Source of the DNA: Phycisphaerales bacterium
GTDB taxonomy: Bacteria; Planctomycetota; Phycisphaerae; UBA1845; UTPLA1
Length of the DNA stretch: 53,333 nucleotides
Reading direction: 5' to 3'
Assembly: GCA_022360095.1 (NCBI GenBank)
Contig: JAKSDK010000795.1
Coordinates: 1 to 53,333, forward strand
The translations under genes were made by a program, and so were the position numbers. The notes beneath the pieces were generated by a model, which did no database searches, was not told where the DNA came from, and saw only the letters and a list, made by a program, of their open reading frames with translations. This document shows positions 21,475-47,203 of this stretch, in pieces; the stretch's first letter is position 1; each line of letters starts with the position of its first letter.

Positions 21475-21477
21475 GAC

Positions 21478-22605: not shown

Positions 22606-22635
22606 AGCGGTTCGCCGATACTGACAATAAGTGGA

Positions 22636-23961: not shown

Positions 23962-23982
23962 CTTCTCGATATCGAGGGTTTC

Positions 23983-25101: not shown

Positions 25102-25423
25102 GCTGGCGCCGGTTCCGGGTTCCCAGCTTTTTCCCCCTCAAGAAAATCGAAACTCCAACCCGATATGGTGACGGAGTCCATGAACATTCGCCCGGCACAT
25201 TTTGCGCTCTAACGCAAACGTGAAAAATCACAGCGATTCAGCCGTCCCCATAAAACGGCTCAGGGTGAACTTCTTGCGACGCGCTGGCGTATGCGTGTAG
25301 GATCGACTCTGCTAAGGACGGCACGGCCCTCCCGGGCTGTATGGCTGGCTCCAGCCGGCCAGGGGAATTTGCCCGGGGTGAGATGAGCTTAGGGCCGCGA
25401 CTTCACACGGAGGTGAACTCCCC

Positions 25424-26902
25424 ATGTCGCGAATCGTAACCCCTTCGGACACGGCTCTTCAATCCGATCTTTTTCGTCGCGACACGCGTACTTCAGGTCA
25501 TCCGCGTCAACAACATTGGAGCAGTCCCTACGCGGCGAGACGGATTCACCTGATCGGCATCGGCGGTTGCGGTATGACAAGCCTCGGCGGCGTGTTGCTT
25601 CGTTGCGGAGCGATCGTCAGCGGTTCGGACCGGGTCGAGTTCAATGCTCAAGGCCAGCTGGAAGAAATGGGCGCGGTCATTCGCATCGGCCAGGCCCCGA
25701 TCAACGTGTCTTCCGATTGTGAGCTGGTGGTCTATTCCGCCGCTGTCGGAGACGACAATCCGGAATTGCTCGAAGCCAGACGTCGGGGTGTGAAATGCCT
25801 CAAATATGCCGAGATGCTCGGTCAGGTGATGCAGTTGCGAACCGGCATCGCGATCGCCGGCACGCATGGCAAAAGCACGACCACGGCCATGCTGGCTTAT
25901 ATTTTGCGTCAAGCCAAAGCCGACCCGACGTTCGTGGTCGGCGCCGGCGTTCGGCAACTGGAGGGCAGTTCCGGGGTCGGCGACGGGCCTCACTTTCTGG
26001 TCGAGGCATGCGAATATGCACAATCATTTTTGAACCTCTCGCCTTTCTATTCCGCGATTCTGAACATCGAAGAAGACCACCTCGATTGTTACAACGGCAT
26101 CGAGGCCATCATGGAGGCGTTTCGTTCGTTCATTTCGCTGGTTCCGCCGGAGGGAACGATTCTGGCCAACGGTGAAGATCGTAACGTGGTCAAGGCCGTC
26201 GAGAATGCACGAGCATCGGTGGAAACTTTCGGCGAGTCGGAGGGCATGACGTGGCGTGCCCTCAATGTTCGTCACGACCATGGTTGTTACTCATTTGATG
26301 TGCTGTACAACGATGCCTTATTCCTCCGGGCCGATCTGAAGAGTCTCCCGGGCAGGCACCAGGTTTTCAATGCGCTGGTCGCGACGGCGCTGGCCAAGCA
26401 TTGTGGGATCTCCGCAGAGGCCGTCGCGGAGGCGCTTTCGGAGTTTGCCGGCGCCGACCGTCGCCTGACCCAGCGCGGGGATGTGGGTGGCGTCATCCTG
26501 CTCGACGACTACGGGCATCATCCCACTGAGATTCAAGTGACGCTTCGAGCGGTTCGAGAGCACTATCCCAATCGGCGGCTTTGGGTCATCTTTCAGCCGC
26601 ATCAGCATTCGCGTACCAGGTTCTTGTTGAATGATTTCGCTCGGAGTTTCGGGTTGGCGGATCATTTGCTGGTTCCGGACATTTACTTTGTGCGCGATTC
26701 CGCGTCGGAGCGGGCCGCTGTTTGCAGCAGCCACCTCGTGGAACGGGTCCGGGCCAATGGTGGGGATGCGCTCTATTTACCCAAGCATGAACAGATTGTG
26801 GAACATATGGTGACCCACGCCGCCGCCGGCGACGTGATCCTGACCATGGGCGCCGGTGACGTGTGGAAGATTGCCGATGAACTTGTTCGACGACTTGCCT
26901 GA
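25424..26902 (+). CDS. murC: UDP-N-acetylmuramate--L-alanine ligase MurC.
   Basis: IAGTHGKSTTTAMLA P-loop, LLDDYGHHPTEI. SD GGAGGTG upstream. Confidence 0.9.
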   Translation: MSRIVTPSDTALQSDLFRRDTRTSGHPRQQHWSSPYAARRIHLIGIGGCGMTSLGGVLLRCGAIVSGSDRVEFNAQGQLEEMGAVIRIGQAPINVSSDCELVVYSAAVGDDNPELLEARRRGVKCLKYAEMLGQVMQLRTGIAIAGTHGKSTTTAMLAYILRQAKADPTFVVGAGVRQLEGSSGVGDGPHFLVEACEYAQSFLNLSPFYSAILNIEEDHLDCYNGIEAIMEAFRSFISLVPPEGTILANGEDRNVVKAVENARASVETFGESEGMTWRALNVRHDHGCYSFDVLYNDALFLRADLKSLPGRHQVFNALVATALAKHCGISAEAVAEALSEFAGADRRLTQRGDVGGVILLDDYGHHPTEIQVTLRAVREHYPNRRLWVIFQPHQHSRTRFLLNDFARSFGLADHLLVPDIYFVRDSASERAAVCSSHLVERVRANGGDALYLPKHEQIVEHMVTHAAAGDVILTMGAGDVWKIADELVRRLA

Positions 26903-27761
26903 ACCTGCTTGCCGCCGGAATGTCCCTCTCGCCCCGCTGACGTGGTTCAAGCTGGGCGGACCGGCGGAGTATCTTGTCGAGCCGCAATCTGAGCAACAGC
27001 TGGCGACCGTCCTTCGTCGATGCCACGAGACCGGCACCCTCGTTCACATTCTCGGACTCGGAGCCAATGTCCTCGTCCCGGACGAAGGCGTTTCAGGCGT
27101 CGTTGTTCGTCTTAATTCTCCCGCGTTTACGGAGGTCACTTTCGAAGAGGGGACTTTGAATGTCGGCGGCGGCATGGATATGACCAAGCTGGTCCGCACC
27201 TGCGTGCGTCAAGGGATGGCCGGATTGGAACAACTGGCAGGCATTCCAGGTACGGTCGGCGGGGGAATCTGCATGAACTGCGGCGGCCGTTACGGCGAAA
27301 TCGCGACGGCCATTCTTCGTGTTCGGGTGATGAGACCGGACGGGAAGATCGAGGAGCGCAGGCAGGAGGAATTGAGTTTCGATTACCGGCGGTGCAACCT
27401 TGACGACGGTTTCGTCGTCAGCGCCGCATTTCAACTTCACGAGACTGATCCCGAACAGCTTCGGGAGCGCTTCCACGAAATCTGGACGTACAAACAGAAT
27501 TCGCAGCCCGCCATGGGGGGGCAAAGCGTCGGCTGTATTTTTCGAAATCCCAATGGTCAATCGGCGGGGCAATTGATCGATCTCGCCGGTTTGAAGGGGT
27601 TTCGTGTCGGTAGTGCCTACATTTCAGAACGTCATGCGAACTTCGCCATGTCGGACAAAGGAGGGCGGTCCGCAGATGTTCTTAACCTGATTCATACAGT
27701 TGCAGATCGTGTCATCGAACGTTTCGGGGTTCGTCTGGAACCTGAAGTGAAGATTTGGTAG
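26877..27761 (+). CDS. murB: UDP-N-acetylenolpyruvoylglucosamine reductase MurB.
   Basis: FKLGGPAEYLV FAD-binding start. The ORF track begins at 26856; ATG 26877 is more likely. It overlaps the murC 3' end. Confidence 0.85.
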   Translation: MNLFDDLPEPACRRNVPLAPLTWFKLGGPAEYLVEPQSEQQLATVLRRCHETGTLVHILGLGANVLVPDEGVSGVVVRLNSPAFTEVTFEEGTLNVGGGMDMTKLVRTCVRQGMAGLEQLAGIPGTVGGGICMNCGGRYGEIATAILRVRVMRPDGKIEERRQEELSFDYRRCNLDDGFVVSAAFQLHETDPEQLRERFHEIWTYKQNSQPAMGGQSVGCIFRNPNGQSAGQLIDLAGLKGFRVGSAYISERHANFAMSDKGGRSADVLNLIHTVADRVIERFGVRLEPEVKIW

Positions 27762-27774
27762 ATCCACCGGCGAG

Positions 27775-28776
27775 GTGCAGCGCTCGCCGGACGACTGGAG
27801 CCTTGCCGTGAGTGTCACGCATTCGAAAACGAAGCCGAGAGAACATGACGCTACGTCGACAGACCGGAAGTTGGCGATCACCGTTTTGGCCGGAGGGCCC
27901 AGTGGAGAGCGCGAAGTCAGTCTTGAAAGCGGTCAGGCGGTCGTGGCAGCGCTTGAAACTCTGGGCCATGAGGTTCAACTGGAAGACATCGCGCCGAATG
28001 ATCTGACCGCGTTGGCTCGGGAGGTCGATTGTGTGTTCATTGCTCTGCACGGCACATTCGGCGAGGACGGTCAGGTCCAATCCATTCTCGAAGAGCGCGG
28101 CCTATGCTATTGCGGCTCCGGGCCAAGCGCATGTTCATTGGCCATGAACAAAGCGGAAGCCAAGGCAAAATTTGCCGATCTTGGCTTGAAGACACCGCGT
28201 TTCGCGGTCGTGACTGCGGAAACGACCGGCAAGATCACGTCGGCAGACTGGCCTGTGCCGGTGGTCGTCAAGCCGATTCAGGAAGGTAGCAGTCTGGCGT
28301 GTCATATCGTGCGAGACGTCGCACAGTTTCAACCGGCCGTTGACGCCGTCGTTCGCGAATACGGCCGATGCATGATCGAGGAATACGTCCCCGGCAGAGA
28401 AATCACGGTCAGCATCCTGGGAGATACGGCGTTGCCGCCGATTGAGATTCGGACTCGGCGTGAATTCTACGACTACGAGGCCAAGTATGTCGATGAAGAT
28501 ACGGAGTTCGTGTTCGACATCGACTTGCCGCAGAAACTGCTGGAACAAATCTCCGAGATGAGCCTGGCAGCCCATCGCGGCTTGGGCTGCCGTGATTTCT
28601 CCCGAGTGGACTGGCGGGTGGATGACAAGCGATTAAGTCCCGGCCTGCTGGAAGTGAACGTGATTCCCGGTCTGACGTCCCATTCATTGTTTCCCAAGGC
28701 CGCTCAACACGCAGGCTGGAGCCTGCCGATGATGTATCAACATCTCGTGGAACTGGCGATGACACGAGGCCTCTGA
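27775..28776 (+). CDS. ddl: D-alanine--D-alanine ligase Ddl.
   Basis: ATP-grasp (IALHGTFGEDGQVQSILEERGLCYCGSG, EVNVIPGLT). The true start is probably downstream of the listed one. Confidence 0.85.
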   Translation: MQRSPDDWSLAVSVTHSKTKPREHDATSTDRKLAITVLAGGPSGEREVSLESGQAVVAALETLGHEVQLEDIAPNDLTALAREVDCVFIALHGTFGEDGQVQSILEERGLCYCGSGPSACSLAMNKAEAKAKFADLGLKTPRFAVVTAETTGKITSADWPVPVVVKPIQEGSSLACHIVRDVAQFQPAVDAVVREYGRCMIEEYVPGREITVSILGDTALPPIEIRTRREFYDYEAKYVDEDTEFVFDIDLPQKLLEQISEMSLAAHRGLGCRDFSRVDWRVDDKRLSPGLLEVNVIPGLTSHSLFPKAAQHAGWSLPMMYQHLVELAMTRGL

Positions 28777-31403: not shown

Positions 31404-34400
31404 TCAAACACCGACGAGTTTCCCGGATTTCGACGCTTCGCCGGGCGGAGGCGTTCGAGTCGGCACAGAAGGCTTTATCCTGCGGCGGCCCACCCGGTCG
31501 ACGGCATGTTTGCCGAGAAGCGTTTCGACCTCGCTTACGAACTTTTCATCGGGTCGAACCGAAAGCGCGGCCCCGCAGCGAATGAGCGTGGTCGCCGCAT
31601 CGGACGTTTGAATCTGAATGAAGAAAGTACGGTCGCCGGGGTGGGCCCTGCAAATCTCATGGAGTCGTTCCAGCGAGGACGATTCCTGACCGGCCGAGAC
31701 TCTAATAATGATCGCTTCGGACAACTCGATGGGACCGTCTTCGAGACTGATCACCTCAGAGACCCTCAACGAGGGCTCTTCACGTTTTCGATCGACCTGA
31801 CCTTTCAGAAACAAAATGTTGTCGGGGGCAATCAGGTCACGGTGTTTTTCCAGCTCTTCGCTGAAGACGACCGCCTCGATCGAACCGGTGAGGTCCTCAA
31901 ACGTGAGTACGGCCAGTTTGGAACCGGCGTTACGACCGTTTTTCGTCGTAACCATGCGCACGCGGCTGATCATCCCCCCGATGACGGCCTCGCCCGGATC
32001 AATTTCACTCCGTACCAGGTCTCGGCAGTTCGCGGTTGCGTATTTTTCCAAGACCTCCACCTGGGCGGTTAGCGGATGGCTGGTCACGTAAAAACCGAGC
32101 ACGGATTTCTCATGGGCCAGCATTTCGGCTTCGGTCCATTCCTCATTGGAAATTGCCGGATGGTCCTCGGACGAATCGTTCGTACCGAACGCGTCAAACA
32201 TACTCATCTGCCCCGACTCGCGATCTCGCTGAGTTTCGCTACCCACCTGAAGGGCCTTCTCCAGCACGTTGGTCAGGGCCTTGCGCATGGCCCCGGTGGA
32301 ATCGAACGAGCCGGCTTTGATCAATGCTTCAGACACGCCTCGGTTCACGACCGTTAGATCGATCCGCTCGCAAAAATCATACAGGTCTTTGAAGGGACCT
32401 TCTTTCTCCCTCGCATCGACGACGCACTGGACCGCTTTTTCGCCGACGCCCTTGATTGCCGCGAGGCCGAAACGCAAATAGTTCTTTCCGTTTTCCGGAT
32501 AGACTGTGGTAAAGCTCACATTGCTGGTATTGATATCCGGGGGTTTGACGTCGATCCCGAGACGGGCGCACTCTTCGCGATATTCCACGATTTTGTCAGT
32601 GTCGCCCATGTCGTAGGTCATCAGGGCGGCCATGAACTCCAATGGATAATATGTTTTTAGATAGGCGGTTTGGAAAGCCACGAGGGCGTAACCCGTCGAG
32701 TGCGCTTTGTTAAAAGCGTATTCACCGAAGGGCAAAATCTGATTGAAGATGTCTTCCGTCACCTTCTTGCGGACGCCTTGCTTGACCGCGCCTTCAATGA
32801 ACGGTTCGCGTTCCGCTTCAATGGCGGCGGTCTTCTTCTTGCTGATGGCCTTGGCGAGTCGGAAAGCCCGTTTCCGTTCGATCCCACCAAGCTGGATGGC
32901 CAGTCGGGCGACCTGTTCCTGATAGACAATGATGCCGTAGGTTTCGGCCAGCACGTCGTCCATGATCGGATGCGGGGTGGACCACTTTTCGCCGTGCTTG
33001 CGTGCGACGTAGGCATCGATGTTGACCATGGGGCCGGGTCGATATAGAGCGTTGGCTGCAATCAGATCTTCGATCCGGTTCGGCCGCATTTTCATCAGCA
33101 CGTTTCGCATGCCGCCTGACTCAAACTGGAAGATGCCCTTTGTTTCGCCGGCGGCGAATAACTTGTAGGCCTTCAGGTCGGAGAGATCGAGTCTTTCGAG
33201 GTCGAGTTTGATGCCGTGGTTCCTCTCAACCAACTTGCAGGCCAACGCCAGCACGCTCAACGTCCGCAAGCCTAAGAAGTCCATTTTCAGCAGACCGACC
33301 TTCTCAACCGTCGGTCCTTCGTATTGTGTGATCACGGCCTCGGAATTCGGCGCCTGATATAGGGGAAGGAGTTCGTCAAGCGGCTGCTCGGCAATCACGA
33401 CGCCCGCGGCATGGACGCTGGCGTTTCGTGCCATGCCTTCCAGGCGCTTGCCAATGTCGATGACCTTGCGAACGCGCTCATCTGTCTGGTAAAGCGTCTT
33501 AAGCTCAGGTTCCCGGGCCAGTGCTTTGTCCAGAGTCATTTTCAATTCTTCCGGCACCAGCTTGGCCAGCCGATCCGCCTCCGCCAGACTGACGCCGGTC
33601 ACACGGCAGACGTCTCGAATCGCCGCCCTTGCCTTCAGCGTGCCGAACGTGATGATCTGTGCCACGTGACCATATTTTTCACGGACGTATCGAATAATCT
33701 CCTCTCGTCCGTCCTGACAGATATCAATATCAATGTCGGGCATTTCGTCACGGTCAGGGTCCATGAACCGTTCGAAGTACAATCCGTAGTGGAGGGGGTC
33801 GGGCTGGGAAAGGAACAAGCAGAACGCCACGATCGAGGAGCATCCGCTGCCGCGCGCGCCGCACGGGATTTCCTTCGATCGCGCATAGTGCACGAAATCC
33901 CAGCAGATCAGAAAGTAACTCGAAAAGCCTTTGCTCTGAATCACCTCCAGCTCATAATCGATACGATCTCGGATATCGGTCGTGATTTCGCCGTAGCGTT
34001 CCTCGGCGCCCTGATAGACCAATTCGCGCAGATAATCTTCCGCTGTCTTCTCTTCGGGCGGGTGGTAGACCGGCGTGTAACGCTTGTTGAAATCGAACTC
34101 CACGTTGCAACGCTCGGAAATGGCGATCGTGTTCGAGACCGCCTCGGGCAGCTTTGGAAACAACGAAGCCATTTCTTCGGACGACTTGAGATAGAACTGG
34201 TCAGTCGGAAATTTGAACCGATTCTCCTCGTCTTGTAGGGCCCGCGTTGAAATGCAGCACAAAACGTCATGCGCCTCGACGTCTTCATGAGTCAGATAGT
34301 GAGCATCATTGGTGACCACCATTCCGATGCCTCTTCGATTTGCGATTTCGATCAGCTCGGGATTGATCATGCGTTGCTCGTCGATCCCGTGATCCTGCAA

Positions 34401-34940
34401 TTCGATGAAGAAACGGTCGACGCCGAAGACTTTTAGGTACCAATCCGCGATGTCCTCGGCCGTAGCGCGATCGTGCTTAATGAGCGCCTGTGGGATTTCC
34501 GCGCCGAGACAGGTGCTCGTACAAATCAATCCCTGGCTGAACTGCTCCAGGACTTCTCGATCGATTCGCGGCTTATAGTAAAAGCCCTCTCGGTAGCCGA
34601 TGGACGTCAATTTCAGAAGATTTCGATATCCGACCTGATCCATCGCCAGCAGAAGCAAGTGATAGCTGGCGTCCTTCACGCTCGTCGCGTCCTTGTTCCG
34701 ACGGTCGCCAGGCGCAATGTAGGCCTCCATTCCAATGATCGGCTTGACCCCGGCGTCGACCGCGGCCTGATAGAATTCGATCGCGCCGAACATGTTGCCG
34801 TGGTCGGTAATCGCCACTGCCGGCTGGTCCAATGCCTTGGCCCGTGCGACGAGTTCATCAATGCGATTTGCTCCGTCGAGCAGGCTGTAGTGGGTGTGGA
34901 CGTGGAGATGAGCGAAAGGAACCGTACGATCTTCCGGCAT
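31404..34940 (-). CDS. dnaE: DNA polymerase III alpha subunit DnaE.
   Basis: 1178 aa. N-terminal PHP domain FAHLHVHTHYSLLDG. Polymerase core and OB-fold regions. Confidence 0.95.
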   Translation of the reverse strand: MPEDRTVPFAHLHVHTHYSLLDGANRIDELVARAKALDQPAVAITDHGNMFGAIEFYQAAVDAGVKPIIGMEAYIAPGDRRNKDATSVKDASYHLLLLAMDQVGYRNLLKLTSIGYREGFYYKPRIDREVLEQFSQGLICTSTCLGAEIPQALIKHDRATAEDIADWYLKVFGVDRFFIELQDHGIDEQRMINPELIEIANRRGIGMVVTNDAHYLTHEDVEAHDVLCCISTRALQDEENRFKFPTDQFYLKSSEEMASLFPKLPEAVSNTIAISERCNVEFDFNKRYTPVYHPPEEKTAEDYLRELVYQGAEERYGEITTDIRDRIDYELEVIQSKGFSSYFLICWDFVHYARSKEIPCGARGSGCSSIVAFCLFLSQPDPLHYGLYFERFMDPDRDEMPDIDIDICQDGREEIIRYVREKYGHVAQIITFGTLKARAAIRDVCRVTGVSLAEADRLAKLVPEELKMTLDKALAREPELKTLYQTDERVRKVIDIGKRLEGMARNASVHAAGVVIAEQPLDELLPLYQAPNSEAVITQYEGPTVEKVGLLKMDFLGLRTLSVLALACKLVERNHGIKLDLERLDLSDLKAYKLFAAGETKGIFQFESGGMRNVLMKMRPNRIEDLIAANALYRPGPMVNIDAYVARKHGEKWSTPHPIMDDVLAETYGIIVYQEQVARLAIQLGGIERKRAFRLAKAISKKKTAAIEAEREPFIEGAVKQGVRKKVTEDIFNQILPFGEYAFNKAHSTGYALVAFQTAYLKTYYPLEFMAALMTYDMGDTDKIVEYREECARLGIDVKPPDINTSNVSFTTVYPENGKNYLRFGLAAIKGVGEKAVQCVVDAREKEGPFKDLYDFCERIDLTVVNRGVSEALIKAGSFDSTGAMRKALTNVLEKALQVGSETQRDRESGQMSMFDAFGTNDSSEDHPAISNEEWTEAEMLAHEKSVLGFYVTSHPLTAQVEVLEKYATANCRDLVRSEIDPGEAVIGGMISRVRMVTTKNGRNAGSKLAVLTFEDLTGSIEAVVFSEELEKHRDLIAPDNILFLKGQVDRKREEPSLRVSEVISLEDGPIELSEAIIIRVSAGQESSSLERLHEICRAHPGDRTFFIQIQTSDAATTLIRCGAALSVRPDEKFVSEVETLLGKHAVDRVGRRRIKPSVPTRTPPPGEASKSGKLVGV

Positions 34941-36628: not shown

Positions 36629-37804
36629 TCAAACTGCAGCGCAGACTTTCTTCGCTGCGTCGGTGAGATCTGTTGCCGTGATGAGTTGTTCAATCGCCGC
36701 CTCTTTCAACATCTCGCGGGCACGTTCGACGTTGGTGCCTTCCAACCTGACGACGACAGGCACTTTGAACCCGACTTCCTTTGCCGCATGGATCAAGGCA
36801 TCGGCGATGACGTCGCATTTGGCGATTCCGCCGAAGATGTTGACCAGGATGCCTTTGACGTTCTGATCTGACAGGATTATTCGAAATGCCTCGACGGCCC
36901 CTTCTTTCGTGACGCTGCCGCCGACATCGAGAAAGTTTGCCGGCGAGCCGCCGTGAAGTTTGATGATGTCCATCGTGCTCATGGCCAGGCCGGCGCCGTT
37001 GACCAGACAGCCGATGTTGCCGTCCAGGGCGATGTAGCTGAGGTTATGCTCGGCCGCGCGAAGCTCGTTCGGGTTTTCTTCAGTTGCGTCGAACAATTCC
37101 TTGATGCTCGGATGCCTGAACAAGGCGTTGTCATCGAAATTGAACTTTGCATCGATGGCCAGGATTTCACCCGAGCCCGAGCCGTTGCCTTTGGTCAGGA
37201 CCATCGGGTTGATCTCAGCCAGGCTGCAATCCTTTTCCGCGAAGAGTTTCGCCACGGCCGCCATGACCTTCGAAGTCGCTTTGGCATGGTCTCCGGACAG
37301 GCCGAGGGCATCGCACAAGCGCCTTAACTGGTAGGGCTGAATTCCGAGGTGAGGGTGAATCCACTCTTTCACGATCGCATCGGGGGTCTTCGCGGCGACT
37401 TCTTCGATCTCGACGCCGCCTTCTTTCGAGACCATCATCACTGGGCAGCCCCGGGCGCGATCCACAACCATGCCGACGTAGTATTCCTTCTCGATCTCCA
37501 CCGCCGGGGCCAGGAGAATCTTCTTGACCTTGACACCTTCCGGCCCCGTTTGCTTCGAGACCATCGGCTCGGCGAACATCCGTTGACAATTTTGCTCGAT
37601 CTCAGAAGGATTGTCCGAGAGAATGACATATCCGGCCTTGCCCCGCCCGCCGGCATGGACCTGCGCCTTGACGACGAGCCTGCCGCCGCCGAGCGCCTTG
37701 ATCGCGGCCGACGCCTGATCGACCGAATCGATGACCTCAAACTTCGGCACGGGCGCTCCGGCCTCTTGCAAGAGCTTTCTGGCTTGATATTCATGTACTT
37801 TCAT
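36629..37804 (-). CDS. sucC: Succinyl-CoA synthetase beta subunit SucC.
   Basis: MKVHEYQARKLLQEAGAPVP ATP-grasp start. Full length, 391 aa. Confidence 0.9.
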   Translation of the reverse strand: MKVHEYQARKLLQEAGAPVPKFEVIDSVDQASAAIKALGGGRLVVKAQVHAGGRGKAGYVILSDNPSEIEQNCQRMFAEPMVSKQTGPEGVKVKKILLAPAVEIEKEYYVGMVVDRARGCPVMMVSKEGGVEIEEVAAKTPDAIVKEWIHPHLGIQPYQLRRLCDALGLSGDHAKATSKVMAAVAKLFAEKDCSLAEINPMVLTKGNGSGSGEILAIDAKFNFDDNALFRHPSIKELFDATEENPNELRAAEHNLSYIALDGNIGCLVNGAGLAMSTMDIIKLHGGSPANFLDVGGSVTKEGAVEAFRIILSDQNVKGILVNIFGGIAKCDVIADALIHAAKEVGFKVPVVVRLEGTNVERAREMLKEAAIEQLITATDLTDAAKKVCAAV

Positions 37805-37998: not shown

Positions 37999-39204
37999 AT
38001 GACGATGGCGAAGTTCTTTGGCAGAATCGAGTTTCCATGCACGATTGAATTGGGCCGTGGGCTGGAAGGCGCGATCACCAACGTCACCCAAATCGGTTAC
38101 GTGGACGGTCAGGCAGGGGCTTTGATCTATCGCGGCTATTCGATCGAGGACCTTTGCGAGCACAGCAATTTTGAGGAGGTCGCTTACCTGTTGATGTTTG
38201 GCAAGTTGCCCACTGCTTCGGAACGAGCGGATTTCGAGACGAAGCTCCAGCAGGGGGGGACGTTGCCTGAGCCGGTTATGCACTTGATCGAAGCCAAGCC
38301 CAAGGACGCGCATCCGATGAACGTGCTTCAGTCGGCGGTTGCCGCCTTGGCTTGCTACGATGAGGAGAGCCTGGAGGTCACGCACAACGTTTCCGATCCG
38401 GCCGCGGCGATGAAGGCCGAGACCGACGTCGCAATTCGAATACTGGCGCGTACGCGAACCGTGGCCTCCGCGATTGCCAGGGCCCGTCTCGGTCGCCCGT
38501 TGATCCAGCCTGATCCCGAGTTGGATTTTACTTCGAATTATCTCTACATGATGACCGGCGAGAAGCCGGACGAGGTGACCCGTCGCGTGATGGATGTTTG
38601 CCTGATCCTTCAGGCGGACCACGGCATGAACGCGTCCACATTCACGGCCATGGTGGTCCACAGTTCATTGTCGGACATGTATTCGACCATTGCTGCCGCG
38701 ATCGGCTCACTGCGAGGCCCTTTGCACGGTGGGGCGAATGAGGCCGCGCTGGCCGATCTGCAGACGATCGGCAATCCTGAGAACGCCAAGACCTGGTCTC
38801 AGGAGAAGATGTCCAAGGGAGAGAAGATCATCGGTTTCGGCCATCGCGTCTATAAGGCGTTGGACCCACGTGCGACGGTTCTCAAGCGACACGCCGAGGT
38901 TCTCTGCAAACAGAAGGGATTTGAATCTCTCTTTGAGACGGCGAACACGGTCGAGCGCGAAGTTACGGCCGCGATGGAAGCCAAGGGCAAGAAGATTTAC
39001 CCGAACGTGGATTTCTACTCCGGGTTGGTCTATCACGCATTAGGGTTTCCGACGCCGTTGTTCCCGGTCATTTTCGCCGTTTCGCGCACGGCCGGTTGGT
39101 TGGCCCGCGTGCTGGAATACCTGCCTGAAAACCGCATCTTTAGGCCCCGTGCCGTATATAGCGGCCAGACGGACCAAACGTATGTTCCCATCGACCAGCG
39201 ATGA
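37999..39204 (+). CDS. gltA: Citrate synthase.
   Basis: GFGHRVYK motif. DFYSG, HALGFP and other citrate-synthase signatures. Divergent from sucC. Confidence 0.85.
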   Translation: MTMAKFFGRIEFPCTIELGRGLEGAITNVTQIGYVDGQAGALIYRGYSIEDLCEHSNFEEVAYLLMFGKLPTASERADFETKLQQGGTLPEPVMHLIEAKPKDAHPMNVLQSAVAALACYDEESLEVTHNVSDPAAAMKAETDVAIRILARTRTVASAIARARLGRPLIQPDPELDFTSNYLYMMTGEKPDEVTRRVMDVCLILQADHGMNASTFTAMVVHSSLSDMYSTIAAAIGSLRGPLHGGANEAALADLQTIGNPENAKTWSQEKMSKGEKIIGFGHRVYKALDPRATVLKRHAEVLCKQKGFESLFETANTVEREVTAAMEAKGKKIYPNVDFYSGLVYHALGFPTPLFPVIFAVSRTAGWLARVLEYLPENRIFRPRAVYSGQTDQTYVPIDQR

Positions 39205-41466: not shown

Positions 41467-42837
41467 CTAAGACGGGCTCGATAGGCCCGTTTCGATGATT
41501 GCTCGTATTTCGGTATCGCGCACTGCGTCATCATTCGGCATGAGTGCCGCATCGCTGACGATACATGCACCGTATTGTTCCGGTGAATCTGCCGGAGCGC
41601 CGTGGCTGCCTTTGACGAGGGTTGCGTCCAGCGGCGTTTGTTTCGTTTCCATGTTGATGAACATCTCGACCGGATCGTAGCCGGGCTTGTTGTGAATATC
41701 GACCGTGTGGGCAAAGGGCGGGGCTTTGGCATCGTCGTGCCACCAATAATAGGCAAGCCAGGTGTCAGGCTCGCACACGAGGACGACTTCGCCGGAGCGG
41801 GGATGATCGATGAAATACCGGTCGTCTTCACGAACGGGAGCCTCCCTCTTTCCGCCAAGGGGAGATTGCGGGCAACGAACGTCGGCGATGCCGTCGAGGC
41901 CTTCAAAAATACCGGATACGGCATCGATGTCGGTTTTGTCTTTGACGTAGACGTGAGCAAACTGATGGTCTACGACGGCGAAGGCCAAGCTTTCTTTAAG
42001 ATTTATGAACTCAGTGCCTTCGCGTTCGTCGATCTTGACCATGCCGGCGTCGCGCAGCATTCGGTTCGGGTACAGAACCCGGGAGACGTCCGTCATGGCA
42101 TATTCACTGACGACCAGATACGCGGCCTCTTTGATGCCGATCGAATCCATGCCGTCGAAGAAACGGCCAAGTTGCTCATCGGCTTCTCTGCATGCAGCGA
42201 CTTGCTGCTCGCTGTTTGGACCGTGTTTCTGGGCCTGATAATCCAGGTGAGGAAAATAGAGATAGTTGAAGCGCGGGCGTTCGCGCTGAATCAGCCACAG
42301 CGCGGCATTGACGATCCATTCAGTGGACCTGACGTTCGCCATCGGGCCCCAGAAGTTCATCAGCGGAAAGTGGCCCAGGTCTTTCAGCAGTCTTTCGTAC
42401 AGGCCGTCGGGTTTGGAATAACACCATAGTTCGGTGCGCCCATCGGGATGGTGGATCGGTTCCGGCGTGACGATGAAGTCCGCCGCGGCGTCCTTGATGT
42501 TTTGTGGAATCCAGGCCGCTTGAGAAATGCCGCGCTCGGCCAGGCTGTCCCAAAGCTGACGGGATTCGATCAGCCCATTGCGGCCGACCCAGAGTTCCAC
42601 GTCCCCCTGATCGCGGAAGTAGAAGCCGTTTCCGATGATGCCGTGTTCGTTCGGTGTCTTGCCGGTGAGCATGTTGGCCTGAACGGGCGAGGTCACACAG
42701 GGAAACGTAGGGATCAATTCACGGACGGCGCCGTTTTTCGCGACGGCGCGGAGTCGTGGCATGTGTTCGAGGTCGCGTGTTCTCAGCCCTGGAATCGACA
42801 CGAAAATGAGGTGCTCGTATGACATATGTTGTTTCAC
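41467..42837 (-). CDS. Alkaline-phosphatase-superfamily enzyme, type I phosphodiesterase/nucleotide pyrophosphatase (NPP) family.
   Basis: LIFVSIPGLRTRDL...FPCVTSPVQANMLTGKTPNEHGIIGN (metal-ligand Asp and nucleophile Thr region). Confidence 0.7.
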   Translation of the reverse strand: MKQHMSYEHLIFVSIPGLRTRDLEHMPRLRAVAKNGAVRELIPTFPCVTSPVQANMLTGKTPNEHGIIGNGFYFRDQGDVELWVGRNGLIESRQLWDSLAERGISQAAWIPQNIKDAAADFIVTPEPIHHPDGRTELWCYSKPDGLYERLLKDLGHFPLMNFWGPMANVRSTEWIVNAALWLIQRERPRFNYLYFPHLDYQAQKHGPNSEQQVAACREADEQLGRFFDGMDSIGIKEAAYLVVSEYAMTDVSRVLYPNRMLRDAGMVKIDEREGTEFINLKESLAFAVVDHQFAHVYVKDKTDIDAVSGIFEGLDGIADVRCPQSPLGGKREAPVREDDRYFIDHPRSGEVVLVCEPDTWLAYYWWHDDAKAPPFAHTVDIHNKPGYDPVEMFINMETKQTPLDATLVKGSHGAPADSPEQYGACIVSDAALMPNDDAVRDTEIRAIIETGLSSPS

Positions 42838-43670
42838 CCGTTCAGTTTTGAAAGAAATTCGAAAGCCCTTTCGGCAGTGCGGACGGCATCGTGACTATGG
42901 CGGCTGAGTTCGACATTCACGGTGCCAGTATACTGCACGTCCCGGAGCGCTTCAAAAATCGGATCAAACGCCATTTCACCTTCTCCGAACATCAAATGAT
43001 CGTGGATGCCCGTTTTCATGTCTTCGATGTGGATGTTCAGAAGTTTCTTCCCGAACTCGCGAATTCTGTCCGACGGTGTGCCGTCTTCCAGGCAATGAAC
43101 ATGACCGACGTCAAGTGTAAGGCCGAATCGAGGATGACTGAGCTCATCCGCCAGGCGTTGAAATTGCGACAGGCGATCGACAAACATGTCGGGCTCCGGT
43201 TCGAAGGCCAGCCACACATCGTGTTGCACGGCTTTCGTCAGCAGTTCGTCACACATGTCCACCAGCAGCGTCCAGCAATCTTTCTCCGACATGGCCGAGT
43301 CGCGGGCACCCGACCAGAAGCTGACCGCTTCCGCATTGAGCCTCGCTGCGATTTCCATCGACCGGTCCAGGAAGTCCAGCCTTCGTTGTCGCTGCTCCGG
43401 GTCCGGTGTGAGCAATGTCGGCCAGTGTTTTTGACGAGAGTCCAGCAGGAACCGAGCGCCGGTTTCAACAACGCAGCTCATATTCCGGGTTTGGAGCAGC
43501 TCTACGATCGACGCCGTTTGTTCAAGAATGTCGTCATCGAAGGGGTTCAACGCACCGTAGTCCAGTGTAATCGCCACGGACTCGTAGCCGATTTCGGCAA
43601 GCACGTTGATCGCGTCCGCGAGACGGTGGTGGGCAAAGCCGTTGGTGTTGTAACCGAGTTCGAAAGGCAT
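42834..43670 (-). CDS. Sugar-phosphate isomerase/epimerase (xylose-isomerase-like TIM barrel).
   Basis: The ORF track merges this gene into a 630-aa artefact (42834..44726). The real gene starts at ATG 43670 (MPFELGYNTNGF...). Confidence 0.7.
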   Translation of the reverse strand: MPFELGYNTNGFAHHRLADAINVLAEIGYESVAITLDYGALNPFDDDILEQTASIVELLQTRNMSCVVETGARFLLDSRQKHWPTLLTPDPEQRQRRLDFLDRSMEIAARLNAEAVSFWSGARDSAMSEKDCWTLLVDMCDELLTKAVQHDVWLAFEPEPDMFVDRLSQFQRLADELSHPRFGLTLDVGHVHCLEDGTPSDRIREFGKKLLNIHIEDMKTGIHDHLMFGEGEMAFDPIFEALRDVQYTGTVNVELSRHSHDAVRTAERAFEFLSKLNG

Positions 43671-43705
43671 TTTGCTCTCTGTTTGAAGGGCTGCCGGTGG
43701 CCAAG

Positions 43706-44659
43706 CTAGGTTGAATATATCCAGCGACCGATGAGCAGCGTCGGAACGAGGAGTCCCAGCACGCAGACGCCCGCGATCCAGCCGGCAGTCGCCGAGGCCA
43801 GGATTGCATCGAACACGACGATCCCCAGAATAAACGTCTTCATCGCATACTGTACCTGTCGTGGAGAAGGATCTTTGATTGCTCGATGAATTCGCCTGGA
43901 TAGGAGGACGAGGAAGGCGAACCACAGAATCATCAGGAAGTTGTCCGAGACCATCGCCGGAAGCACGAGTGTTCCGAGCAGGAGAACGGCAGTGATAATG
44001 CCGAATCCTCCGGTCGCGAGTCGAAACTTCGTGCTTCGCCTCGCTTCCTCGAATCCGAAATAGGTCAAGGAGGCGACGTAATAGATCAATGCGATGATGA
44101 AGAACAGCCCTCCAAGATCCGTAAACCACCAACCGACCGACATCGCCATCAGGAGATTCAGCCCGCGGCAAAGCCCCATGAACACCAGACCGGAAAGCGT
44201 GCCTTTGAAAAGGAAGTTGTAGGCGATGATGGTTGCGAGCAACAGGACTCCCACCAGACCGGGGCGGAGTTTCCCGGGCAAAATGTAATCCGAATCGGTG
44301 ACTTCTCCCACGAAACCCGCAGCGCAGGCAAGCATGACCGCTATGATGGAGATTCCTGTGGCGATCAGGACCGCTTGCCTCTTTGGAATTCGGCCGGACG
44401 GCAGAGGTCGTTGCGGCCGTTCGCGACGATCCGTCTCGATGTCGCGAACATCGTTCAAGATGATTCCGGCTGCATAAAAGAATGCGGAGGCTGCCACGAG
44501 GCAGAGAAGTTGCCAGGACCAAAGTGACTGCCAGGAGCGGAGCAATTCCGAGGATCGGAGTTGGGCTGCGACAAGCCAGTAACCGGCGAATGCATCGGCC
44601 ATGGCCGTGAAGACATTGGGCAGACGAACAAGCTCGAAGTAGGCCTTGAGCGATTTCAT
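43706..44659 (-). CDS. UbiA-family membrane prenyltransferase.
   Basis: NDVRDIETDRRERPQRPLPSGRI (Asp-rich motif 1). 8-9 TM helices. 317 aa. Confidence 0.75.
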   Translation of the reverse strand: MKSLKAYFELVRLPNVFTAMADAFAGYWLVAAQLRSSELLRSWQSLWSWQLLCLVAASAFFYAAGIILNDVRDIETDRRERPQRPLPSGRIPKRQAVLIATGISIIAVMLACAAGFVGEVTDSDYILPGKLRPGLVGVLLLATIIAYNFLFKGTLSGLVFMGLCRGLNLLMAMSVGWWFTDLGGLFFIIALIYYVASLTYFGFEEARRSTKFRLATGGFGIITAVLLLGTLVLPAMVSDNFLMILWFAFLVLLSRRIHRAIKDPSPRQVQYAMKTFILGIVVFDAILASATAGWIAGVCVLGLLVPTLLIGRWIYST

Positions 44660-45501
44660 AGACTCGCCGCCACGCGATCAAGATATTGTTTGGCTTCCTG
44701 GCCGGCGGTATCCGGGTCCTCGACAAACGGATACAACTCTACAGTGAGCCAGCCGTCATAATCTGTTTCGCGAATGGCCTGCAGCGTCGCGCCAAAATCG
44801 ATGGCGCCGGTTCCGGGAACGAGGTGATGATGCACTCTGGAAGCTGCGATATCCTCCACGTGATAGTGACGAGTGTGTGAAGCCATCCTGGGAATCCACT
44901 CGGCCGGTTCCTCGGCAACGCAATAGGCGTGGCCGATGTCGAAGTTCAAGGCCATGAACGGCGAATCGATCCGGTCACGGAGTTCCAGATATTGGTCAAA
45001 ACGTTCGATGAGCAAGCCGGGCTCTGGTTCGATCAACAAAAGCACTTGTTCTCGTCCGGCGTGTTCAACAATCGGTTTGAGATTTTCGACAAACAGGTTC
45101 ATCGCCGTCGCATAACCCGATTCGGACTCGATCGGTCCTCCCGGTTCGGTCGTAATGCACGGCGCCCCCAGCCGTCGCGCCATGGTCAAAGCCGCCCTGG
45201 TGTGCTCGACACGGATCTGCCGATAGTCGGCGTCCGGTTCGATCCAGCTGGGATGCCAATAGGGCTGTCTGGAATCACCAATTTTGTTCATCATGAACGC
45301 ATTGATGTTTGAGATGGCCAGGCCATGTTGATCGAGCGCACGGCGAACGTCGTCGATCCGTGCATTCGATGTTTCGGCCGGCCAGAGATGCGGCACGTCC
45401 GCCATGAGCTCAACGCCTTTGTAGCCCAAGCGCGCGATGCGCGCCAGAGCTTCCTCGATTTCAAATCGCATGTAGGCATTGGTGCTGTAAGCCAGGCGCA
45501 T
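44656..45501 (-). CDS. Sugar-phosphate isomerase/epimerase (xylose-isomerase-like TIM barrel), second copy.
   Basis: MRLAYSTNAYMRF... Its stop overlaps the UbiA start by 4 nt. Confidence 0.7.
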   Translation of the reverse strand: MRLAYSTNAYMRFEIEEALARIARLGYKGVELMADVPHLWPAETSNARIDDVRRALDQHGLAISNINAFMMNKIGDSRQPYWHPSWIEPDADYRQIRVEHTRAALTMARRLGAPCITTEPGGPIESESGYATAMNLFVENLKPIVEHAGREQVLLLIEPEPGLLIERFDQYLELRDRIDSPFMALNFDIGHAYCVAEEPAEWIPRMASHTRHYHVEDIAASRVHHHLVPGTGAIDFGATLQAIRETDYDGWLTVELYPFVEDPDTAGQEAKQYLDRVAASL

Positions 45502-45523
45502 CTTCGTTCGTTATTCAAACGTT

Positions 45524-45680
45524 TCAGCGTTGTGTCTTTTCGACTTTTCGCCGTTTTGATTTTTTGTTTTGACGTCTTAATTTTTCGTCGTTTTGACGTT
45601 TTGATTTTTTGCCGTTTAGACGTTTTGATTTTTCGACGCTTCGATGTTTTGATTTTTTGACGTTTTGATTTTTTGACGTT
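45524..45680. repeat. Imperfect 18-bp tandem repeat array (~8 units; consensus on the plus strand ~ttgacgttttgatttttt). It encodes the K/R-rich tail of the inositol-phosphate synthase.
   Basis: Visible periodicity in the plus-strand sequence at 45530-45680. Confidence 0.75.
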
Positions 45681-46897
45681 TCCCCTGCGACATATCGATG
45701 CAGCATCTCAACCTGGGCCGCGAAACCGTGTTCGGAAACCCCCATGGGTGATTTGAAAAAACAGGCCAGGTGCTTCATGACACCGGTATGTCCCTGTTCG
45801 GCATGGTAGTCAGCCAGCCGGGCCAGGTCGATAATCAGAGGCGCCGCAAGGATTGAATCACAACCCTGCCAGACGAATTGCAGGCTCATCTTGGTCCCGA
45901 GGAAACCGCGAAAATGCACGTGATCCCAGGCCGTCTTCCAATCGTGGAGCGATTCCACGTACTCGATCGACGTGCGCGTCTGAGGAGGATAGCCCACGAG
46001 GGACGCGATGACCCCATTCTTGGTTTCAAGTTTGGCGGCCTTGTTCGGGGACGAATCCAGGACCATGCCGTCGCCGTTGCCAAGAACATTGTGACCGACC
46101 CAGCTTTCAATCTTCAGATGTCTTTCACGGAACATAGGCGCCAGGACGGTCTTCAAGAGAGTCTCACCGGTCTTGGCATCGGAGCCCATAAACGGGACAC
46201 CTTGCATCTCCGCTAACTCGTGAATTGCCGGGACTTCCACGCCTAACGAAGGCGTGAAGCTCACGAAAGGCATGTTTTCTTCAATGGCGGCCACGGCATA
46301 GAGACTGCTGGCGGGCAGGGGAGAAGTCCTTTGTGAAAGTGCTTTGTCGAGCTTCGACCAGTTTCGATGCGTGGCGGTAAGTTTATAGGCCGGCTCGGTC
46401 GACGCGACGTGCACAACGACGACGCGGTGGAGCCGGTGACGACGACGAAACAGGCGAAGGTCGTTGCGGAGCTGACCAATGATATGTCTGGCACTGGTCT
46501 TCTTACGGGCGCCTGACCGCGTCGCCAGCCTGCTGATGGCGTGGCCGCATCGGATGGCCGTACCTGTTCGGATGTTCTTTTCATATTTCGCAAGAGCCGG
46601 CTTGACGGCCCTGAGCATCAGCTCATCAAAGATCCCACTGTTACGGCGGAGTTCGTCTGCTGATTGGGCGACGCTCCGGCGGCTGATTTCATGTCCTCCA
46701 AGCGTGATATTAGAGAGGGGCGCCAGAAGGAGTTTGGCGAGCGGCGCCTGATCCGTGACAAGTCCAATGGGCGGCGTCAGCTTTTTTTGGAGGGCGGCAA
46801 GCCCTACGGCCACAGTTGTCGCAACATTGCCTGACGCGCCGATGAGCCAGATACCTAACTTTCTTTGAGATTTAGCCAAAGCGGATTGGTTCCCCAT
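45524..46897 (-). CDS. myo-Inositol-1-phosphate synthase with an unusual Lys/Arg-rich repetitive C-terminal tail.
   Basis: GIWLIGASGNVATT NAD-binding start, SWVGHNVLGNGDG. The tail is KNQNVKKSKHRSVEKSKRLNGKKSKRQNDEKLRRQNKKSKRRKVEKTQR. Confidence 0.8.
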   Translation of the reverse strand: MGNQSALAKSQRKLGIWLIGASGNVATTVAVGLAALQKKLTPPIGLVTDQAPLAKLLLAPLSNITLGGHEISRRSVAQSADELRRNSGIFDELMLRAVKPALAKYEKNIRTGTAIRCGHAISRLATRSGARKKTSARHIIGQLRNDLRLFRRRHRLHRVVVVHVASTEPAYKLTATHRNWSKLDKALSQRTSPLPASSLYAVAAIEENMPFVSFTPSLGVEVPAIHELAEMQGVPFMGSDAKTGETLLKTVLAPMFRERHLKIESWVGHNVLGNGDGMVLDSSPNKAAKLETKNGVIASLVGYPPQTRTSIEYVESLHDWKTAWDHVHFRGFLGTKMSLQFVWQGCDSILAAPLIIDLARLADYHAEQGHTGVMKHLACFFKSPMGVSEHGFAAQVEMLHRYVAGETSKNQNVKKSKHRSVEKSKRLNGKKSKRQNDEKLRRQNKKSKRRKVEKTQR

Positions 46898-47203
46898 ACG
46901 GCGATGGTCCGGAATCGACCCCTGACTTGTTGTCCATCGCCGGGATCATCACCCAATAGTCCTATCTACTAGCTACGGCCGGCTCGGGAAGGTATCGCAG
47001 TCTGTCTGCGATTCGCCTCTTTGGAATTGACTTCCTGTCCTGGACCCGATTCTAGGGCCAAGGAGCTTTCAGACGATTTGATGACGCGATTGAGAGGTCA
47101 TCGCGACAGCAACTCCGCCAATAGCGCTGCTTTACTTAGATAACAGAGAACAACGGCACCGTCAAGTTACCCGCCGGTTTATCGGTCATCATGAAAGTCA
47201 GCG

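Follow-up and report, generated by a model that had tools for sequence, protein, structure and literature searches.

What does a compact block of five genes in an uncultured planctomycete make? The block occupies positions 41467 to 46897, minus strand, of JAKSDK010000795.1, a 53,333-bp contig of a Phycisphaerales (Planctomycetota) metagenome-assembled genome (MAG) that was analyzed over its whole length and is called the window in the following (NCBI proteins MCG8406664-6). Read along its own strand, it encodes a member of the inositol-phosphate synthase (MIPS) family, a xylose-isomerase-like TIM barrel (TIM1), a UbiA-superfamily membrane prenyltransferase, a second such TIM barrel (TIM2), and a hydrolase of the AlkP/NPP family. 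The original prediction, made from the letters of the DNA, saw a candidate prenylated-cyclitol or inositol-lipid pathway of a composition that matched nothing characterized. The latter statement turned out to be too strong: the block is a variant of the ebo/EDB gene set, whose inositol-synthase (ino) form is found in Actinomycetota—as described in a preprint—and in Bacillus, haloarchaeal, and Nonomuraea loci. We propose that it is probably a planctomycetal, inositol-synthase-type variant of ebo with a meroterpenoid product of the thallusin/saccharoquinoline class. What the analysis shows is its gene content, the homology of its proteins, their conserved synteny, the preservation of catalytic motifs, and its kinship with annotated ebo clusters.

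The genes eboA-F were defined by Yurchenko et al. in 2016, who proposed an "isoprenoid-cyclitol-derived compound" as their product (PMC5133447). The prenylated, cyclitol-derived product of the original prediction equals this hypothesis and is a reasonable one, while the inositol-lipid or membrane head-group part of it is not supported. A preprint of May 2026 reports that ebo genes track thallusin production across 35 strains, that Stieleria maiorica loses thallusin when eboB, C, E, or F is deleted, and that L-aspartate is incorporated into this compound (10.64898/2026.05.21.724671). In Actinomycetota, the same preprint finds eboD absent and ino1 (MIPS), ino2, and ino3 instead; it also reports both saccharoquinoline and thallusin from Saccharomonospora sp. 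CNQ-490 and the same quinoline substrate being accepted by EboC enzymes from three phyla. Planctomycetal ebo genes are described there as scattered, with EboA absent from most Planctomycetota.

A conserved five-gene unit

All five predicted minus-strand open reading frames are present, and Pfam profile searches uphold the domain assignment of each protein. Their packing is operon-like, as had been claimed: 22 nucleotides (nt) separate the MIPS stop from the TIM1 ATG as read from the sequence, TIM1 and UbiA overlap by 4 nt (ATGA), 35 nt lie between the UbiA stop and the TIM2 ATG at 43670, and TIM2 and AlkP either overlap by 4 nt, if GTG 42837 is the start, or are spaced by 8 nt, if it is ATG 42825. 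This spacing, together with the conserved gene order, makes us infer that the five genes are cotranscribed.

For the conservation of this order, relatives of the UbiA protein were collected by a scan of one genome per species, which gave 80 loci from genomes and MAGs mostly labeled Planctomycetota. The gene content of these 80 was read by tblastn with the window proteins; together with five metagenome contigs identical to the window, they form a set of 85 loci. A closest group of 14 loci (UbiA 42–61% identical) is mostly labeled Phycisphaerae, and a distant group of 66 loci comes from Pirellulales, Gemmatales, and Isosphaerales; denominators differ by gene in the latter. The complete order MIPS-TIM1-UbiA-TIM2-AlkP recurs in some dozen other Phycisphaerae genomes—among others in the close loci L009, L011, L013, L015, L017, and L019, where AlkP follows TIM2 each time, and likewise in the more distant L022, whose UbiA is 39% identical. 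TIM1 lies 0–40 nt upstream of UbiA in all 14 close loci, and TIM2 downstream of it in 10 of 12. MIPS is found upstream in each of the nine close loci with enough flank (at least 4.5 kb), which confirms the expected co-conservation of MIPS and UbiA. In the distant loci, TIM1 is present in 44 of 61, TIM2 in 20 of 50, AlkP in 21 of 46, and MIPS in 7 of 45. A TIM1-UbiA(-TIM2-AlkP) core is hence found across Planctomycetota, with TIM1 58–78% identical over the phylum and UbiA just 32–61%.

The genes flanking the block in the window—a hybrid histidine kinase, NfeD-like, flotillin, and citrate synthase genes—have no counterparts in the related loci, and the five genes thus form a discrete unit. The original prediction would have been undermined by a lack of co-conservation in relatives; instead, the order is kept while the flanks vary, and the five-gene arrangement is a genuine conserved unit, not a chance one. 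Three contigs with planctomycete-like UbiA clusters (L020, L032, and L085) carry the MAG labels "Candidatus Nealsonbacteria" or "uncultured Alcaligenaceae", which are probably binning errors and not true occurrences outside Planctomycetota.

The prenyltransferase and its relation to EboC

The UbiA gene (43706..44659, minus strand) encodes an EboC-like UbiA-superfamily membrane prenyltransferase of 317 residues (Pfam UbiA, 52.5 bits) with ~8–9 hydrophobic segments by hydropathy; the MIPS, TIM1, TIM2, and AlkP proteins look soluble and bear no signal peptide. Its best NCBIfam match is EboC (NF035940) with 169.7 bits against an equivalog cut-off of 250, followed by the SCO3242 family prenyltransferase with 116.6 bits, and all remaining UbiA families—ether-lipid, chlorophyll, haem O, quinone—score at most 56 bits. 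SCO3242 ("putative transferase") neighbors the MIPS gene SCO3243 in S. coelicolor, so that the second-best family is also a MIPS-linked UbiA. The EboC cut-off itself is conservative: NCBI does not use the name EboC for the UbiA of the canonical Azospirillum operon (A-B-F-D-E-C) either.

The window UbiA was aligned with those of Aureibacter and Bacillus (both annotated eboC), Azospirillum, Nonomuraea, and Haladaptatus. Invariant across this alignment are NDxxDxxxD, ERPxRPxP, Y62, Y147, K152, MGxCR, T199, E205, and a C-terminal T. Y62 is located seven residues before the Asp-rich motif and would correspond to the tyrosine highlighted for EboC/UbiA-297 in a study in which EboC homologues farnesylate hydroxyquinoline-2-carboxylates (PMC9235831).

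Firm clustering of the UbiA protein with the quinone enzymes MenA, UbiA, or MqnP would have explained its presence differently. NCBIfam scores place it outside this group, as they favor EboC over ubiA_proteo (169.7 versus 24.4 bits, where the latter family requires 275), and matches to MenA or MqnP families were absent at E≤0.001.

The other product that had been envisaged is an inositol-based membrane lipid, for which UbiA would join a polyprenyl chain by an ether bond to inositol phosphate or a glycerol/inositol phosphate and the AlkP enzyme would remove the phosphate, leaving an unusual head group for a planctomycetal lipid. MIPS could supply inositol phosphate for such a lipid, Planctomycetes have unusual lipids, and the UbiA superfamily includes archaeal ether-lipid enzymes, whose GGGP/DGGGP-type families provide the third-ranked NCBIfam matches (56 and 52 bits). 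However, the best of these GGGPS/DGGGPS matches covers residues 2–116 only and stays at 56 bits versus a cut-off of 296, far under the EboC score. The cluster also contains no CDP-alcohol phosphatidyltransferase, no glycerol-phosphate enzyme, and no polyprenyl synthase, the same gene set is found around annotated eboC in bacteria and archaea with very different membrane lipids, and the EboC enzymes characterized so far farnesylate hydroxyquinoline carboxylates and not inositol. A lipid or head-group product is hence very improbable.

A MIPS-type cyclase and two TIM barrels

The first gene of the block (45524..46897, minus strand) encodes an Ino1-like protein of the MIPS family with 457 residues (Pfam NAD_binding_5, 177 bits, and Inos-1-P_synth, 110 bits), which NCBI names inositol-3-phosphate synthase (MCG8406666.1). 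Its best solved relative is the MIPS of Archaeoglobus fulgidus (1u1i), matched over its full length (residues 15–388) with 267 bits, versus a much weaker 54 bits for the five-membered-cyclitol-phosphate synthase 6k96. The GxxGxxxT motif and the counterparts of 1u1i N255, L257, K274, K278, K306, D332, and K367 are all conserved. As every catalytic residue of the Archaeoglobus enzyme is kept, the protein likely cyclizes a hexose-6-phosphate. It is 41% identical to the MIPS of the Nonomuraea ebo cluster and 34% identical to that of the Bacillus eboC cluster, and it is presumed to catalyze the cyclitol-forming first step as a stand-in for EboD.

At its C terminus, the MIPS protein bears a ~55-residue tail (residues ~404–457, window 45519–45676) that is 42% Lys/Arg with KSKR-like repeats and is encoded by a 24-nt tandem repeat of 6.7 copies (75% matches) running up to the stop codon. 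tblastn matches in other loci stop well before this Lys/Arg-rich part, and the homologues are without it. The tail could be a repeat expansion or a nucleic-acid- or membrane-binding element.

TIM1 (44656..45501, minus strand; 281 residues; Pfam AP_endonuc_2, 151 bits) and TIM2 (42834..43670, minus strand; 278 residues; AP_endonuc_2, 140 bits) are both xylose-isomerase-like and paralogous to each other, with 26% identity and an hhalign probability of 100%. In Bacillus and Haladaptatus, the TIM barrel that immediately precedes eboC/UbiA is 42–43% identical to TIM1. Against EboE, hhalign gives a probability of 96.8% for TIM1 and 94.3% for TIM2; the NCBIfam family TIM_EboE (NF035939) is matched by TIM1 with 27 bits at a cut-off of 250 and is not matched by TIM2. 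We propose that TIM1 might act as a functional stand-in for EboE, to which it is just a distant homologue. In the ebo cluster of Nonomuraea, EboA bears a fused TIM domain with which TIM2 has 47% identity; TIM2 also corresponds to gene "X" of the planctomycetal C-X-F arrangement reported in 2016. An AlphaFold2 model of TIM1 from the single sequence was unusable (mean predicted local distance difference test score, pLDDT, of 37).

A further reading makes the two barrels IolE, IolI, or IolO enzymes of an inositol utilization operon, or the UbiA protein a MenA-, UbiA-, or MqnP-type prenyltransferase of respiratory quinone biosynthesis. Both barrels indeed weakly match IolO, IolE, and related epimerases or isomerases with 29–67 bits, and IolI and AsbF are among weak PDB matches. 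These scores are, however, far under the family cut-offs of 290–305 bits: IolO reaches 63 bits for both barrels (cut-off 300) and IolE 51 and 29 bits (cut-off 290) in NCBIfam. Also, the locus carries a synthase instead of an inositol dehydrogenase or transporter, the neighborhood shows no inositol dehydrogenase or further iol genes, and no other iol, men, mqn, or ubi genes occur in the window; the quinone side additionally has to contend with the UbiA scores given above. This explanation appears hardly credible. Taken with gene context, the NCBIfam scores led us to reject the quinone, the ether-lipid, and the iol readings.

The EboF-like hydrolase and a distal TatD

The last gene of the block (41467..42837, minus strand) encodes an EboF-like hydrolase of the AlkP/NPP family (Pfam Phosphodiest, 177 bits) of 452 residues from ATG 42825 or 456 residues from GTG 42837; gene callers chose the ATG, and thus 452 residues, on the identical metagenome contigs. 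It aligns over its full length with proteins in the EboF position of ebo clusters—31% identity for Aureibacter (256 bits), 36% for Azospirillum (271 bits), and 41% for Nonomuraea, with 254–271 bits—and is 40% identical (327 bits) to the AlkP protein of the Bacillus cluster. Its gene lies one gene downstream of the UbiA gene, beyond TIM2, which fits EboF as an eboC-linked PF01663 hydrolase. Invariant residues in common with the EboF-position and Bacillus proteins include T45, H61, D195, D286, H287, H291, and H408. The N terminus is not hydrophobic, and the protein is probably cytoplasmic, as it bears no signal peptide.

AlkP-family proteins of EboE-carrying clusters (Aureibacter, Azospirillum, Nonomuraea) bear a ~23-residue insertion. 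This insertion is absent from the EboF-like proteins of clusters of the TIM1 type: those of the window, other planctomycetes, Bacillus, and Haladaptatus. EboE and EboF may covary, and such covariation would point to a link between the two, physical or functional.

A homologue of EboB, a TatD-family metallohydrolase, is absent from the 53-kb window. However, in 17 planctomycetal loci, among them L015 and L022 of Phycisphaerae, an EboB-like TatD gene is located a few kb or less from the cluster; the planctomycetal protein is 41% identical to the EboB-position TatD of Aureibacter and 44% to the TatD of the Bacillus cluster. A close homologue, MCG8403822.1, is likewise annotated as Phycisphaerales bacterium; its accession lies ~2,800 from the MCG8406664-6 of the window in the same NCBI block, and of the five metagenome samples with the window UbiA, four contain it as well. 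This accession proximity and sample co-occurrence suggest that the EboB-like TatD is very probably encoded on another contig of the same organism. Locus L012 comes from the complete chromosome CP030884.1, which also encodes this TatD away from its cluster.

The TatD family is both abundant and well conserved. In a search with the TatD of L015, 7,986 of 8,000 scored candidates fell at E≤1e-40, and the best 120 were mostly 75–91% identical. Constraint on TatD and TIM1 thus appears, from these sequence identities, to be stronger than usual for secondary-metabolite enzymes.

Directly upstream of TatD, at a distance of 13 nt on what is probably another contig of the same organism (L091:340-600), a protein of 86 residues is encoded. 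It stands beside TatD in 16 planctomycetal loci (further sites include L015:7133-7390, L022:14612-14851, L040:14482-14703, and L073:15530-15769) with 32–55% identity and an invariant LDR...AA.LDR motif. The protein has no Pfam match. A short EboA was considered and ruled out (hhalign probability 0.2%, Pfam blank). The 86-residue protein may be an unrecognized component of the planctomycetal ebo set.

Comparison with other ebo-type clusters

Reference ebo clusters were found by tblastn of plasmid records. On Aureibacter pAT1, the order is EboA-domain protein, TatD, eboC, "3-dehydroquinate synthase" in the EboD position, eboE, and an AlkP-family protein in the EboF position; on Azospirillum pAB510b, it is A, B, F, D, E, C. 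A Bacillus cereus-group megaplasmid carries TIM-TatD-TIM-eboC-AlkP-MIPS, with eboC as NCBI name, and a Haladaptatus plasmid AlkP..TatD-TIM-UbiA-TIM. The unannotated Nonomuraea gerenzanensis locus (L089) reads MIPS-UbiA-TIM~EboA-EboB-EboE-EboF. A "hypothetical protein" at the edge of the Bacillus cluster was discarded as an EboA candidate: its sequence is strongly hydrophobic, and it is probably a membrane protein.

With the canonical eboABCDEF set of Bacteroidota, Cyanobacteria, Proteobacteria, and eustigmatophyte plastids—and with EDB of Pseudomonas fluorescens—the block has an EboC-like UbiA and an EboF-type AlkP in common; an EboB-type TatD is tied to the cluster in relatives and probably present in this genome. 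Both combine a sugar-phosphate cyclase, TIM-barrel enzymes, and a prenyltransferase, and in both the order runs from C through a TIM barrel to F. In contrast, the window is without EboA, and the 3-dehydroquinate-synthase-like EboD is replaced by a MIPS-family cyclase. Instead of EboE (~380–400 residues), it bears two AP_endonuc_2 barrels of 280 residues, which are related to EboE at the profile level only. Its EboF-like protein lacks the ~23-residue insertion, TatD lies outside of the cluster, and its UbiA scores below the EboC cut-off.

The ebo clusters of Actinomycetota with ino1-3 (Saccharomonospora sp. CNQ-490, Nonomuraea L089, and the SCO3242 family) likewise have MIPS for EboD. In comparison with Nonomuraea, MIPS plus two AP_endonuc_2 barrels linked to UbiA, with no eboD, fit this ino arrangement, in which Ino1 is the MIPS and Ino2/3 are TIM barrels resembling sugar-phosphate isomerases; besides MIPS (41%), there are a TIM2 orthologue (47%), an EboF-like protein (41%), and an EboC-like UbiA. 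However, the actinomycete operon keeps EboE, EboB, and EboA—the latter fused to a TIM2-like domain—and has a long EboF, no TIM1 within the 9 kb examined, and another gene order.

The clusters of the Bacillus cereus group and of haloarchaea (Haladaptatus, Natronococcus, Haloferax) contain a TIM1 orthologue (42–43%) directly upstream of or overlapping with UbiA, a second TIM barrel, a short EboF-like AlkP (39–40%), and, in Bacillus, a MIPS (34%). No EboD, EboE, or EboA is annotated in them, and the Bacillus UbiA is annotated eboC. They differ from the block in that TatD lies inside the cluster, the second TIM barrel belongs to another orthologous group (TIMa) than TIM2, and the gene order is another one; also, they are plasmid-borne, whereas the window offers a chromosomal housekeeping context.

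For planctomycetal ebo genes as known from Blastopirellula marina and Stieleria maiorica, the phylum is the same, C-X-F matches UbiA-TIM2-AlkP, and TatD is found away from the cluster. B. marina is listed as "ba//CXF//E" in Table S2 of the 2016 survey, in which eboD was absent from two of three planctomycetes (PMC5133447). The preprint describes planctomycetal ebo genes as unclustered and counts eboD among them, whereas the genes of the window are tightly clustered with MIPS and TIM1.

These comparisons suggest two modules of replacement. A first one, seen in Actinomycetota and Planctomycetota, might consist of MIPS and a TIM2-type barrel where EboD is missing; a second one, seen in Planctomycetota, Bacillus, and haloarchaea, might consist of TIM1 where EboE is missing.

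A proposed route and its weighing

The block likely produces a metabolite of the thallusin/saccharoquinoline class, derived from a cyclitol and farnesylated, and we infer every chemical step toward it, as well as its identity, along the following lines. The MIPS-family enzyme would cyclize glucose-6-phosphate to inositol-3-phosphate. TIM2, and perhaps TIM1, would isomerize or dehydrate this cyclitol to a keto- or deoxy-cyclitol. TIM1, standing in for EboE, might then act with the EboF-like hydrolase and the distal EboB-like TatD to build a hydroxylated aromatic or quinoline acceptor, a step that involves L-aspartate in the published model. Finally, the membrane-bound EboC-like UbiA would add the farnesyl chain to this acceptor.

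Several points weigh against this explanation. EboA, EboB, EboD, and EboE homologues are absent from the 53-kb window by tblastn, and EboA, EboD, and EboE are absent within 10 kb of UbiA in all 85 planctomycetal loci (tblastn, EboE of Aureibacter and Azospirillum). The UbiA protein stays below the EboC cut-off (169.7 versus 250 bits), as do 10 of 10 other planctomycetal UbiA proteins that were scored (145–225 bits). TatD is assigned to the genome via accession proximity and sample co-occurrence and not via a closed genome. The clade could not be linked to the assayed EboC of Stieleria (or Rhodopirellula): a profile built on three UbiA proteins of Pirellulaceae gave only unnamed or MAG-derived proteins among the best 120. 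In S. maiorica, eboE and eboB are each essential for thallusin, the thallusin-making planctomycetes are Pirellulaceae and Saltatorellus with scattered genes plus eboD, and the strains assayed for thallusin include no Phycisphaerae and no TIM1-type cluster (10.64898/2026.05.21.724671). This key functional source is, moreover, a preprint that is not peer-reviewed.

Alternatively, the TIM1-type clusters of Planctomycetota, the Bacillus cereus group, and haloarchaea could represent a pathway distinct from ebo that draws on the same enzyme families and yields another prenylated product derived from inositol, with a prenyl-cyclitol or a prenylated polyhydroxybenzene or hydroquinone as candidates, and not a quinoline meroterpenoid such as thallusin. 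This would fit with the replacement of the missing EboE by a distantly related TIM barrel, with EboF-like proteins that are all without the ~23-residue insertion, with UbiA scores under the EboC cut-off, and with a conservation across the phylum (TIM1 58–78%, TatD 75–91%) that is unusually strong for secondary metabolism; also, TIM1-type clusters are so far without an identified product. Nevertheless, Actinomycetota also have MIPS instead of EboD, and for one of them, Saccharomonospora sp. CNQ-490, production of saccharoquinoline and thallusin is reported; the EboC enzymes of three phyla all accepted one and the same quinoline substrate. The missed cut-off says little, as the UbiA of the canonical Azospirillum operon is not named EboC either. 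We hence regard a pathway distinct from ebo as rather unlikely.

Clusters of the TIM1 type comprise TIM1 and a further TIM barrel, an EboC-like UbiA, a short EboF, TatD, and, where seen, MIPS, but no EboA, D, or E; in their planctomycetal loci, TatD is paired with the conserved 86-residue protein. That this set forms a separate, widespread pathway from inositol phosphate to a prenylated metabolite other than thallusin appears rather unlikely to us. An ebo variant with a thallusin/saccharoquinoline-class product remains the reading we prefer.

Genomic setting and accompanying genes

The block is chromosomal, as ordinary housekeeping genes surround it. A dcw-type cell-wall and division cluster on the plus strand (18449–28776) comprises three Mur ligases, an MraY-type glycosyltransferase, FtsW/RodA, MurG, MurB, and Ddl; it is followed by dnaE (31404–34940), an ATP-grasp succinyl-CoA-ligase-like gene (36629–37804), and citrate synthase (37999–39204). 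Upstream of the MIPS gene lies an intergenic region of 306 nt (46898..47203, minus strand), the sole long noncoding gap adjoining the cluster and, from its position, the presumed promoter region. Scans for sigma-70 sites and terminators inside the cluster gave nothing above background; a sigma-70-like site is likewise absent from 46898..47203, and an Rfam scan of the cluster and this region gave no family.

In other lineages, further genes accompany the core. An ABC-2 exporter—one ABC_tran ATPase and two ABC2_membrane_6 permeases—is encoded directly upstream of TIM1/UbiA on the same strand in ~12 loci labeled Pirellulales, Thermoguttaceae, or Planctomycetaceae (L040:7283-9990, also L024, L039, L041, L042, L043, L052, L056, L060, L072, and L083). 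This adjacency suggests that the product is exported in the lineages that carry it. In seven loci (L025:12351-14291, L020, L026, L027, L046, L060, and L083), a protein of ~640 residues with a predicted N-terminal signal is encoded 3' of AlkP; its C-terminal part weakly matches heparinase II/III with 22.7 bits, below the cut-off. A search of the window for the exporter, the heparinase-like gene, and TatD found none of them.

Implications for the ebo family

The ebo family itself is known, and its ino form has been described for Actinomycetota. New is a clustered ebo-type block in a phylum described as unclustered, with MIPS for EboD and TIM1 for EboE. The comparison also explains the unnamed gene "X" of the planctomycetal C-X-F arrangement of 2016.

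The ebo genes are among the most widespread uncharacterized bacterial biosynthetic gene sets and were just recently tied to thallusin, a picomolar morphogen and growth signal for green seaweeds. If the block makes a thallusin-class product, likely producers would extend to uncultured Phycisphaerae, and its minimal, operon-organized gene set would be convenient for heterologous reconstruction. If it does not, the ebo family would comprise a second class of products, marked by this cluster; in the case of a separate pathway, the very high conservation across Planctomycetota would point to a core physiological role—for example in metal handling, redox chemistry, or envelope traffic—and not to a niche secondary metabolite. 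Either way, the comparison provides testable assignments, with MIPS plus TIM2 as the proposed counterpart of EboD and TIM1 as that of EboE.

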